Below, piece after piece: positions 59,901-64,000 of a stretch of DNA of 64,000 nucleotides. Source of the DNA: Escherichia coli (lineage in GTDB: Bacteria > Pseudomonadota > Gammaproteobacteria > Enterobacterales > Enterobacteriaceae); NCBI RefSeq assembly GCF_030013595.1, contig NZ_CP122769.1; one strand, 5' to 3'. How positions within the stretch are numbered: position 1 is the stretch's first letter; the number at the start of each line of letters is the position of its first letter. Position numbers: made by a program.

Positions 59901-62900
59901 TGTGCCTGTTCACCAAACGCCTGGAGGAAGGCCAGTTTATCTGGCCTGCGGTACGTGACGGCAAGGTATCCATTACCCGCTCGCAACTGGCAATGCTCCT
60001 CGATAAGCTGGACTGGCGTCAGCCAAAAACATCCAGCCGTAACTCACTGACAATGTTGTAAAAAACTCCTGACCGCATTATAAAAACGGTCATGAGTCAG
60101 AAATACCTCATTCGCATCGCAGAGCTGGAAAGGTTGCTCTCTGAGCAGGCTGAAGCCCTCCGTCAGAAAGACCAGCAACTGAGTCTGGTTGAAGAGACGG
60201 AAGCCTTCCTGCGCTCTGCACTGACACGTGCCGAAGAAAAGATCGAAGAAGATGAACGGGAAATAGAACATCTGCGGGCTCAGATAGAAAAACTGCGCCG
60301 GATGCTGTTCGGTACCCGTTCTGAAAAACTGCGTCGTGAAGTTGAACTGGCTGAGGCTCTGCTGAAACAACGTGAACAGGACAGCGATCGTTACAGTGGG
60401 CGGGAAGACGATCCTCAGGTTCCCCGCCAGTTGCGACAGTCGCGCCATCGTCGTCCGTTACCGGCACACCTTCCCCGTGAAATACACCGCCTGGAGCCAG
60501 AAGAAAGCTGTTGCCCGGAGTGTGGCGGTGAGCTGGATTATCTGGGGGAAGTCAGCGCTGAACAGCTGGAACTGGTGAGCAGTGCCCTGAAAGTGATCCG
60601 CACAGAACGGGTAAAAAAAGCCTGTACAAAATGTGACTGTATTGTTGAAGCACCGGCGCCGTCCCGCCCGATAGAGCGTGGTATCGCGGGCCCCGGATTA
60701 CTTGCCCGCGTGTTAACGGGAAAATACTGCGAACATCTGCCACTGTATCGTCAGAGTGAAATCTTTGCCCGCCAGGGTGTCGAACTGAGCCGGGCCTTAC
60801 TCTCCAACTGGGTTGACGCGTGCTGCCAGTTAATGACACCGGTGAATGATGCCCTGTACCGTTATGTAATGAACACCCGCAAGGTTCACACTGATGACAC
60901 ACCGGTAAAGGTACTGGCACCGGGTCAGAAAAAGGCGAAAACAGGGCGTATCTGGACGTATGTCCGGGATGATCGCAATGTGGGTTCGTCATCTCCTCCA
61001 GCGGTCTGGTTCGCGTACTCGCCGAACCGGCAGGGGAAACACCCGGAGCAACACCTCCGCCCCTTCCGGGGTATCCTGCAGGCGGATGCGTTCACAGGTT
61101 ACGACAGGTTGTTCAGTGCAGAACGTGAAGGTGGTGCACTGACAGAAGTTGCGTGCTGGGCCCATGCCCGGCGAAAAATCCACGATGTATACATCAGCAG
61201 CAAAAGTGCGACGGCAGAAGAAGCCCTGAAGCGAATCAGTGAACTGTACGCCATCGAGGATGAAATACGGGGATTACCGGAGTCAGAGCGTCTTGCCGTC
61301 AGGCAGCAGCGAAGCAAAGTGTTACTGACGTCGCTGCATGAATGGATGGTGGAGAAGAATGGTACGCTGTCGAAAAAATCCAGACTGGGCGAAGCGTTCA
61401 GCTATGTACTGAATCAGTGGGATGCCCTCTGTTATTACAGTGATGACGGTCTGGCGGAGGCGGATAATAATGCTGCGGAAAGAGCGCTTCGTGCAGTCTG
61501 TCTCGGAAAGAAAAACTTTATGTTCTTTGGCAGCGATCACGGCGGCGAGCGTGGAGCACTGTTGTACGGGCTGATCGGCACCTGCCGTCTGAACGGTATC
61601 GATCCGGAAGCGTATCTGCGCCATATCCTGAGCGTACTGCCGGAATGGCCTTCCAACCGAGTTGATGAACTCCTGCCATGGAACGTAGTACTCACCAATA
61701 AATAAGCGTCAATACGGTGCTCCGTTGACGCTTACAAATGGCTGCTCCCCTGTAGATGGTGTCCTTGCCAGATCGAACCCGAACCAGCGCCTCCTGAGCG
61801 TCTTTGCTTGCCCTGAGGCAATTGTGCAGGCTCACCAGCACCGGCGGTCCCAAAAATGTCCCGGGCAATTTTATAAAGAAGGTAAAAAGGTACGCCCAGC
61901 ATCATAAAAAAGATTACTGAAAATATTACACGTTCCATTGATGATCTCCTGTCTTGTGAGAGACCAGTTATATCAGGGTGATTCAGTATTTCCGTTTAGA
62001 AAAGAGTACTAATTTGGCCCTGTTCGATCTTAATTTGCCATCCGGGAAAAAGTCATAGGGATAGGCCTGCCAGAGTCAATAACTTCCAGTGATCTGGAGG
62101 AGACCCCGGCTCTCTGAGCCCTCATGGATGGTACGGCTTTACCCCCTGTAAACAGATTCACGTTCCGCAGGACAAACATCGACTACTGACGTCTCATATT
62201 TGCTGACGCTAATCCGACGTCTCATTGCCGTCTGCTTGTTTTCTTTAAAGGGTGTATTAGACGAATATCAAATCGGAATGGTAGGGGATGTGTGGGCACC
62301 ATGCCCGGCCCTCTTTGAGCATCTGAGAGATTGGAGACCTAGCCGGGTAAGATAGCTACTTTCTTACGGGTTACCCTTCAAATCCAAAGACGAAACGGAC
62401 GCTGCCGTTCTCCACGTGGAGACGCTTTACTTCTTCGACAAATTCCTGGATCACCTCTCCGGCGTTATCGGGTGGTATGGCTGACAAAATTTCTTCCGAA
62501 GTCAGCCATGAGTATGAATGTTCACCGAATAAATCATCATCTTCGGACGGTATATCATCAGGTAATCCGCGTAATGCGTGGATAAAAACTGCTGATGTGC
62601 TCGCCCTTTCACGATCTACATCAAATCCGAGCCAGGCAAAGTGGAGATATGATCGGTCCCCTTTATAATTGCTTGATAAATTAATCCATTTACCAGGCTT
62701 TTCTTCCCTTTGAAATCGCCAGCAGATATCAACGCCCATTAAGAAACTCCATTACTATCGTTCGTATGAGATAACTATCATTTCAGAATACTATGACTTC
62801 TTCCCGTATAGAACTAATCGCTCACGCCAACTGGGCGAAGCCAACCGGTTCCGCCACTTCGCTCATTGGTTTTTAGGCGTAAGCACTGAAGCCAGTCTCC

Positions 62901-64000
62901 ATGCTAACTGGCGAGCCTGCGAAAGTCAGACTCGTTGTTATAAAGCGGCATATCGTAAGCGGTGTCTGAAATGAACATGCGGATCTGCTCAAGCGTCATG
63001 CCACAATGAAAACGGTTTACGCTCACATTGGCCCGGGGGAAGTCAGCACAAAACGCATTCAAAACATTTTCATGGACAATGCCAATGTTGATCAACGCAG
63101 CTGGCCCGTTGTCACGGAAGGATACGACACGGAATCCCCCATACCAGCCTGAATGGGAGAAAAATGAAAATGCGCCGGATGCCAGACCATTAGACAGGTC
63201 ATAGCGCAATTTCCCGCACAGAGACTGGCTGTCTTTGCTGTACACGCGATTAATGAAAATACCGGGACCAACTTCTACCGGCTGCTTGTTGCTTGCTAAA
63301 CACGGAAAGCCCACCAGCGAAACCTCCCTTTCTCCTGACCAGTTTACCTGATACCCGGCAGTGAGAAAGTCCGTCAGTTCTACGCCAGAAAGAGCATTAA
63401 TGGCCGCGATATCGGTAGTCAAAATATTTACGTTTTTCATATTCATCTCATCTTTATTCTAAAGTGCGTTTTTTGTCTATCAGCCCGAGGATTGAAAATT
63501 TGAATATTTAATGTGACAGATAAATACCTGTCACTTTTTCAAAAACAGCCTGTAATTGAATATCGAGAGAGTTCATTTTAAAATCCACCAGCTCAGCTTT
63601 ATTATCGCAAACCAAATAAAAATAGGAGTCAAATGCGTCTGTATCTTCATCTTTAAAAATACGGAAGGAATTAATTTTATCATGCCCTTCAAATTCGGCA
63701 TGAATACCATAGCGAACCGAGCCGTCATCGAACTGAACAACCCGTCGTACAGAATTAATCCGGACGTACTGTTTTAAGGCCCTCGCGAAATCGGCATTTA
63801 ACGCCAACGCTCGTAAGATTGAATCAGCGGTTTCATTCTGCTTTTTACGATCGTATTCAAATATCCCACAGCCGGTGTTACGAAAGACCGGCTGAAGAGC
63901 ATTAACCAGGTTGAAGGAATCCACGTTTCTGTCGTTTCTGTACATGAGATATCTCCTGCCCCTCCGCTATACGAAGGGGCTTGATAGGGTTACTGCCAGG

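Follow-up and report, generated by a model that had tools for sequence, protein, structure and literature searches.

The window analysed here, a stretch of 64,000 nucleotides (nt) from the Escherichia coli contig NZ_CP122769.1, belongs to an IncHI2 plasmid and carries at its right-hand edge three minus-strand open reading frames (ORFs), named genes A, B and C. They are genuine genes of the IncHI2 core backbone and are kept under purifying selection. Their natural units are two. The first is a block restricted to IncHI plasmids in which A and B follow a gene of 98 amino acids (aa), referred to as 98aa-A-B. The second is C alone, a separately acquired and shortened member of a widespread acidic protein family of mobile elements. 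All three lie in a long array of small genes with a single orientation. At a little short of an even chance, this array is the equivalent of the leading region of other conjugative plasmids and its products, A, B and C included, have a role in early establishment after conjugative entry.

In Escherichia, Salmonella and Enterobacter, IncHI2 plasmids are major carriers of mcr-1/mcr-9, of extended-spectrum beta-lactamase genes and of genes for resistance to heavy metals. An array of small genes, unannotated and running in one direction, makes up about a fifth of their backbone. The results do not overturn the current understanding of these plasmids; their value is to narrow and organise this part of plasmid "dark matter". 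What is added is the core-backbone status of the segment, the definition of 98aa-A-B and C as natural units and the leading-region-like setting of the array.

Three genuine genes of the IncHI2 core backbone

Gene A (63508..63945, minus strand; WP_000286107.1) codes for a soluble protein of 145 aa with an isoelectric point (pI) of 5.6. Gene B (62904..63440, minus strand; WP_000800252.1) codes for a soluble protein of 178 aa, and gene C (62371..62739, minus strand; WP_000537761.1) for an acidic protein of 122 aa with a pI of 4.6. The ORF listing returns the intervals 63945..63508, 63446..62904 and 62739..62371, in exact agreement with the span 62371–63945 and the three genes given by an earlier, sequence-only reading of the window, and the sizes of 145 and 122 aa given there for A and C stand. 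The 180 aa given for B counts from an alternative ATG at 63446; the protein most likely has 178 aa because all orthologues, as well as the Prokaryotic Genome Annotation Pipeline (PGAP) and RefSeq, start two codons downstream with MKN. Good Shine-Dalgarno sequences are found 8–9 nt upstream of A (AGGAG) and of C (GGAG). In the window plasmid A and B are spaced by 61 nt, and B and C by 164 nt (62740..62903), a gap which contains a small hairpin (GCGAAG...CTTCGC) and, at ~62829, a breakpoint in identity between sublineages. The last 11 nt of the window (63990..64000, minus strand) are the 3' end of the 98-aa gene WP_000744346.1, which precedes A and whose remainder is past the edge. Further small genes and a ParB-like gene come after it, so that the co-directional run continues beyond the window, as had been suspected. 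No transmembrane or signal-like segment is found in A, B or C, which are cytoplasmic proteins.

The selection analysis identifies A, B and C as genuine genes under purifying selection rather than chance ORFs. The proportions of non-synonymous and synonymous differences from the IncHI1 orthologues (pN/pS) are 0.25/0.74 for A, 0.24/0.80 for B and 0.37/0.94 for C. Between two IncHI2 alleles, the ratio of the corresponding rates (dN/dS) is 0.33 for A and 0.21 for B.

The 2-kb segment that spans the three genes is present at 95–100% identity in 986 PLSDB plasmids of 200–370 kb, of which 955 are predicted to be conjugative. Their hosts are Escherichia, Salmonella, Enterobacter and Klebsiella, and the reference plasmids matched include mcr plasmids. 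Among complete E. coli genomes the segment is found in 241 out of 5,426, almost always plasmid-borne. A representative segment-bearing plasmid is typed IncHI2A/MOBH/MPF_F and the relaxase encoded in the window matches the MobH model of NCBIfam (NF041494, E = 5.6e-76), supporting the earlier attribution of the sequence to an IncHI-type plasmid. The relaxase gene is found in 966 plasmids. The A-B-C segment is as widespread as this gene and is therefore part of the IncHI2 core backbone.

The three proteins have no match in the PDB, whether searched as single sequences or as profiles. Scans with PADLOC and NCBIfam give no hit even at E ≤ 1, and in Pfam no score reaches the threshold. In PHROG, A and B have no match and C matches families of unknown function only. 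This agrees with the absence of an assignable motif reported by the sequence-only reading, and no characterised housekeeping gene of plasmids turned up as a homologue. Public sources call all three hypothetical, and no paper citing their protein accessions was found in the literature.

Separate histories of 98aa-A-B and C

A, B and C had been described as a compact co-directional module whose conservation as a block across IncHI-type plasmids was to be checked. They do share the same strand, and 98aa-A-B is syntenic across IncHI plasmids. C does not belong to this block. When two IncHI2 sublineages are compared, 98aa-A-B is 94.3% identical while the sequence from C onward through the tra genes is 99.5% identical, and the jump between these values is a sharp breakpoint inside the B–C gap. 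The genes upstream of 98aa-A-B are replaced outright. The per-gene dS between sublineages follows the same pattern, with 0.38 for the 98-aa gene, 0.045 for A and 0.106 for B, compared with 0 for C and 0.0065 for traD. The A and B alleles did not diverge by positive selection, which the dN/dS of 0.21–0.33 rules out; mosaic recombination under purifying selection accounts for the divergence.

The organization of the other IncHI plasmids leads to the same partition. In IncHI1 (R27, pHCM1) and IncHI1B the slot directly after B is taken by a DUF905 gene and C is absent from it. The IncHI1 homologue of C (129 aa, 45% identity) is located elsewhere, beside umuDC. DUF905 proteins (YkfF/YpjJ-type small prophage/plasmid proteins) are small and typical of the accessory arrays of mobile elements; they have no sequence relationship to C and the replacement is positional only. 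Among the three proteins, C is the only one with relatives outside IncHI plasmids.

A one-directional array resembling a leading region

On the plus strand of the IncHI2 reference the gene order is mobI-like, a 245-aa gene, mobH, traD, a 369-aa gene, DUF4400 (traJ), S49 peptidase and a NERD gene. A convergent minus-strand run then follows (117 aa, 94 aa, 100 aa, C, B, A, 98 aa, 92 aa, 115 aa, ParB-like gene). It is the beginning of an array of ~34 kb that reaches to repHI2 and has 45 of its 49 backbone genes in one orientation. Annotation and library scans identify hok/sok, DUF957, DUF3085, DUF6012 and DUF905 genes in this array, which also codes for an HNH endonuclease, a PAPS-reductase-family protein, an orphan site-specific DNA methyltransferase, RelE/ParE and an Ig-like protein. 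Its orphan ParB-like protein, which has 401 aa in IncHI1, is similar to phrog_1033 (E = 1e-17) and to HTH_ParB.

Such a content is reminiscent of leading regions, which are enriched in methyltransferases, toxin-antitoxins, ParB-like proteins and small uncharacterised genes in an orientation set by the transferred strand (T-strand) (PMC11541004). The leading region of F-like (MOBF) plasmids, with ssb, psiB, yfjB/herB, the hok/sok-type flm, orphan methyltransferases and Frpo, is likewise a long array of small genes mostly transcribed toward the origin of transfer (oriT). Its orphan ParB-like gene yfjB/herB is zygotically induced in the F plasmid (PMC13370423). Common to it and to the IncHI2 array are a type I toxin-antitoxin of the Hok family and two orphan genes, one for a ParB-like protein and one for a DNA methyltransferase. 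A, B and C, which are approximately ORFs 12–14 counted from oriT, point together with the 45 co-oriented array genes toward oriT and the relaxase operon. They have the T-strand as template only if this is the plus strand.

The placement of the array on the leading side rests on the polarity of oriT. Marker mobilisation from a MobI-type oriT with the IncC MOBH1 relaxase led to the conclusion that transfer "progresses downstream of mobI" (PMC7449626), and in R27 a MobI-like gene directly adjoins oriT (PMC10838148). In the window the mobI-like gene lies ahead of the confirmed MobH relaxase. By analogy, IncHI transfer would start upstream of the mobI-like gene and proceed through it, which would make the plus strand the T-strand. 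The tra operon would then enter first and yet could not be transcribed from single-stranded DNA, and the minus-strand array with C, B and A would provide the first genes for which the incoming strand is a template. Soon after entry their proteins may thus help the plasmid to establish itself in the new host, for example by countering host defences or modulating host DNA metabolism; replication, partition and pilus assembly are outside the proposed role. The data show that the genes are real, how they are distributed, their synteny and mosaicism, the size of the C family, the fold model and the make-up of the array. What we infer here is the polarity of transfer, the early timing of expression and any activity in establishment or against defences.

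Several points weigh against this proposal, and a number of them speak for its main rival, a possible though clearly less than even account in which A, B and C are accessory backbone genes of the lagging side with no establishment role, the relaxase operon and the array being the last to enter. The three genes would then be vegetatively expressed modulators (of the thermosensitive transfer of IncHI plasmids or of host physiology) or near-neutral linked passengers. The polarity proposed for IncHI is an analogy carried from islands mobilised by MOBH12/IncC to MOBH11 plasmids, and the MobI label given by PGAP is not reproduced by the NCBIfam hidden Markov model. As a general rule the relaxase gene is assumed to be in the lagging region (PMC11541004; PMC3737333), which would place A–C among the last DNA to enter. 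Unlike in F-like plasmids, the relaxase operon stands between oriT and the IncHI2 array. The array annotation shows no ssb, psiB or ardA, nor klcA, and a long Frpo/ssi-like hairpin, as expected of a single-stranded DNA promoter, is absent upstream of the ParB-like gene and near A–C. Candidate hairpins of this kind are found ~10 kb further, in intergenic gaps of the array (in the reference plasmid pMCR_W5-6, L001 ~26365–26550 with z −3.8 and ~29330–29390 with z −2.6). F-like plasmids have no homologues of A or B. The neighbours of the three genes tolerate disruption: an IS66-family element is inserted after C in the window and the 98-aa gene is broken by a nonsense mutation in R27, so that individual array genes are dispensable. 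In addition, an AlphaFold2 prediction of A and B fused through a linker (pLDDT 36.7, 13 shallow sequences) gave no usable model.

The lagging-side account is itself opposed by the extreme orientation bias of the array and by its ParB-like, hok/sok and orphan methyltransferase genes, which match leading regions. The polarity determined experimentally for a MobI-type oriT runs through mobI. Purifying selection and the near-universal retention in ~1,250 IncHI plasmids speak against neutrality.

If the array is a functional leading region, its genes would govern the survival of the plasmid on entry and would be candidate targets for blocking its spread. Two further possibilities are linked and, at about one chance in four, doubtful: that the relaxase operon of IncHI (MOBH11) plasmids is on the leading side and that the C family is an early-acting family with a new fold. 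Were they true, the minus-strand array would be composed of real early genes, contradicting the assumption made in large-scale surveys of leading regions. The 98aa-A-B block would code for IncHI-specific establishment or anti-defence factors without known relatives. The C family, with more than 1,000 sequence clusters across plasmids and temperate, N4-like and jumbo phages, may work soon after the DNA has entered, either on DNA as a metal-dependent enzyme or by inhibiting a nuclease or defence system of the host. The C family itself and the identity of the leading side in MOBH11 plasmids are worthwhile leads.

Gene C and its plasmid and phage family

The family of C was delineated with a profile built after a few remote, longer relatives had surfaced and searched against 1.84 billion representative proteins. 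It has 1,179 representatives at E ≤ 1e-3, 249 of them at E ≤ 1e-10, with a typical length of 120–300 aa. C is also similar to phrog_10141 (E = 3e-5) and phrog_17909 (E = 8e-5), both of unknown function, whose profiles of 212–252 aa are longer than the 122 aa of C. A Pfam match, fused domains included, was found in none of 133 family members (123 plus 10 longer ones). The family is acidic (median pI 4.9) and has a signature at each end, MG[T/C]DIH at the amino terminus and VRFVFGFDS at the carboxyl terminus, within an overall pattern MGxDIH...RGLPxD...SWL..E...VRFVFGFDS. Near-invariant positions are D4, Q10, W18, R29, R57-G58-x-P60-x-D62, G72, W78, E83 and R115, while H6, H74 and D121 (also D/E73) are found in 70–77% of the members.

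C aligns end-to-end with 122 members of the family. It retains M1, G2, D4, Q10, W18, R29, R57, G58, P60, D62, G72, H74, W78, E83, F100, R115 and the VFGF motif. It deviates at H6, which is replaced by Cys, and at D121/S122, replaced by Glu/Gly. The loss of H6 extends to the whole IncHI clade, where the position is C, N or R. C is the minimal version of the family, of minimal length and without the central insertion of ~80 aa.

The AlphaFold2 model of C, computed from an alignment of 123 sequences, has a predicted local distance difference test score (pLDDT) of 92.4 and a predicted template modelling score (pTM) of 0.87. It features a four-stranded sheet and helices in which the amino- and carboxyl-terminal strands are predicted to pair. 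A Foldseek search of the PDB with this model gives nothing below E = 1. Significant structural similarity is limited to jumbo-phage proteins that are themselves uncharacterised, for example B3FJH1 of phage 201phi2-1 (E = 1e-4, TMq 0.73). The top structural neighbours, over 75–87 aligned residues, are small acidic folds, namely YfbM/DUF1877 (1ryl), the DapD amino-terminal domain (3r5a) and the Neisseria DNA mimic DMP12 (3w1o). DNA mimics are acidic, as are C and its family. The assignment of C as a DNA-mimic anti-restriction protein (of the Ocr, ArdA or DMP12 type) was considered and receives no support from the structure-match scores.

The typical family member is encoded by phages (81 phage genomes) and by a few non-IncHI plasmids, and the genes around it consistently mark an early region or an accessory region of DNA metabolism. 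In Paenibacillus phage Hayley the gene is found directly after those of an antirepressor and an excisionase. In phage Dragolir it is between a Sak4-like annealase and a helicase/primase, in the N4-like EcP1 and in Pastis among small early genes, and in Acinetobacter phage Phab24 beside genes for a DNA-binding protein and an endonuclease. In MOBP/MPF_T plasmids it heads an operon of small genes near ArdC-like, KfrB and Hha genes. C is a shortened, independently acquired member of a family that is widespread in early and DNA-metabolism modules of mobile elements.

The conserved D4, D62, D/E73-H74, E83, R115 and D/E121 suggest either an active site that depends on a metal or a site conserved for binding. 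An enzymatic role is the basis of an unlikely, though not negligible, alternative in which the family is engaged in DNA or nucleotide metabolism, as a small metal-dependent nuclease or phosphoesterase, or in recombination or replication as an accessory factor, and does not inhibit host defences. The near-invariant acidic residues and R115 would fit such an activity, together with H6, H74, D/E73 and D121 of most members. In the model, the conserved extreme amino and carboxyl termini would lie on adjacent strands. The phage neighbours point in the same direction, since they include the Sak4-like annealase, helicase/primase, DNA-binding protein, endonuclease and also a dUTPase. The IncHI clade, however, lacks both H6 and the ~80-aa insertion, and the acidity of the family also fits a binding or mimic protein. 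C flags a sizeable phage and plasmid family that is outside curated databases and has a confident model without a relative of solved structure. A new domain entry for it would be reasonable, as would its inclusion in anti-defence screens.

Genes A and B, an IncHI-restricted pair

A tblastn search recovers A from 1,255 plasmids, and the total for B is identical; about 975–980 of the plasmids are IncHI2 with at least 95% identity and ~274 IncHI1/IncHI1B with 53–62% identity; for A the identity in these 274 plasmids is about 53%. The two genes are adjacent in IncHI2, R27, pHCM1, an IncHI1B Citrobacter plasmid and one metagenomic contig, with a gap of 61–80 nt across all IncHI lineages examined. 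The 98-aa gene precedes A everywhere and its protein is 76% identical between IncHI2 and IncHI1B. In R27 (L014) and pHCM1 (L003 3859–4155) it is interrupted by an internal TAA while A and B are intact. Note that the annotation of IncHI1 plasmids of the R27/pHCM1 type shows the broken gene as two tiny ORFs; IncHI1B and IncHI2 have an intact copy. No relative of A or B outside IncHI plasmids was found by a word-indexed search of 5.8 billion proteins, in which the long invariant stretches of both proteins should seed any relative.

Two weak similarities were followed and rejected. Residues 50–97 of A resemble the AtzH-like (NTF2-like) family of Pfam (E = 0.057, 13.6 bits), which is below the gathering cut-off of 27 and is seen in 2 of 11 orthologues. 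The low-confidence predicted secondary structure of A, two helices followed by five strands, may be compatible with an NTF2-like cone. The carboxyl-terminal ~40 residues of B from the IncHI1 clade resemble DUF5720 (E = 0.011, 16 bits compared with a cut-off of 27.8), a match that is confined to these orthologues and absent from the B protein of the window. B has four invariant residues (Cys49, His125, Cys133 and Cys148). A and B could not be modelled with confidence because their alignments are too shallow.

The tight association of the two genes might suggest that they code for a self-contained two-protein system (toxin-antitoxin or addiction, effector-immunity, or a small defence or exclusion system) to which C is unrelated, a reading that we consider improbable. 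It draws on the identical total of 1,255 plasmids, which suggests and does not prove co-occurrence on the same plasmids, on the conserved adjacency and on a recombination block that the two have in common and that excludes C. Other parts of the array do contain toxin-antitoxin genes, and the invariant Cys...His-[D/E] pattern of B is possibly catalytic. Neither protein, however, matches a toxin-antitoxin or defence family in PADLOC, Pfam or NCBIfam, and sizes of 145 and 178 aa with a non-overlapping gap of 61 nt are atypical for a type II toxin-antitoxin. The 98-aa gene is linked to A and B as closely as they are to each other, and the linkage may be just backbone synteny. The co-fold of A and B, without a usable model, brings no evidence of a complex.

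That the ORFs are spurious or decaying is scarcely credible: the annotation "hypothetical protein" given to them everywhere and the lack of a family assignment are compatible with it, but it is effectively refuted by the selection analysis (pN far below pS for all three, dN/dS of 0.2–0.3 between IncHI2 alleles), and lengths kept at 50–62% identity across IncHI1 and IncHI2, the Shine-Dalgarno sites and, for C, a confident fold with 1,179 family representatives also oppose it.

Neighbouring genes and elements

The gene directly downstream of C, coding for a 100-aa protein (WP_071447784.1), is split in the window by an IS66-family insertion sequence (59204..61735, plus strand) into the fragments 59096–59203 and 61736–61938. 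The element has 2,532 bp, carries tnpA/tnpB/tnpC and has the ends GTAAGCG...CGCTTAC. It is flanked by an 8-bp target duplication, AAATGGCT, at 59196–59203 and 61736–61743, is absent from pMCR_W5-6 and does not belong to the array backbone. The disrupted gene contains a CAC/CTC triplet repeat of ~18 copies (59101–59153) that gives rise to a poly-proline ORF on the opposite strand. Two small array genes come next (58036..58739, minus strand), coding for 94 aa (58455–58739) and 117/120 aa (58036–58398). They are the last ones before the convergent NERD gene and have no Pfam or PHROG match.

At the other side of the tra genes, PGAP annotates the mobI-like gene (47607–48092, plus strand) and the MobH relaxase gene (48836–51982, plus strand; NF041494), which are spaced by the 245-aa gene. 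From its placement in R27, oriT should lie in the intergenic region that immediately precedes the mobI-like gene (~46939–47606). A small indel/repeat difference with pMCR_W5-6 is found in this region at 47282–47333. An Rfam scan of the window yields only RNA-OUT (11720–11789, minus strand; 98.8 bits), which is an IS10/Tn10 end.

Beyond the window, the annotation of pMCR_W5-6 (L001 18219–19404) divides the ParB-like gene into two ORFs that overlap (224 and 179 aa), where other IncHI plasmids (L013 8978–10162) have one gene of ~394–401 aa, which suggests a frameshift of that lineage or a sequencing error. A variable cassette of the otherwise conserved array spans from the downstream neighbour of the ParB-like gene to the 98-aa gene, and consists of a 233-aa gene in one IncHI2 sublineage (L013 10507–11603) and of the 92- and 115-aa genes in the other (L001 17341–17873). 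Upstream of the ParB-like gene, which heads the run with A and B, a perfect pair of 13-nt inverted repeats, AAAAGTAACTTTT and AAAAGTTACTTTT (L001 19494–19506 and 19620–19632, 113 nt apart), could be an operator or a parS-like site. The strongest hairpin signal across the array is found at the hok/sok locus (L001 ~23.0–23.6 kb).

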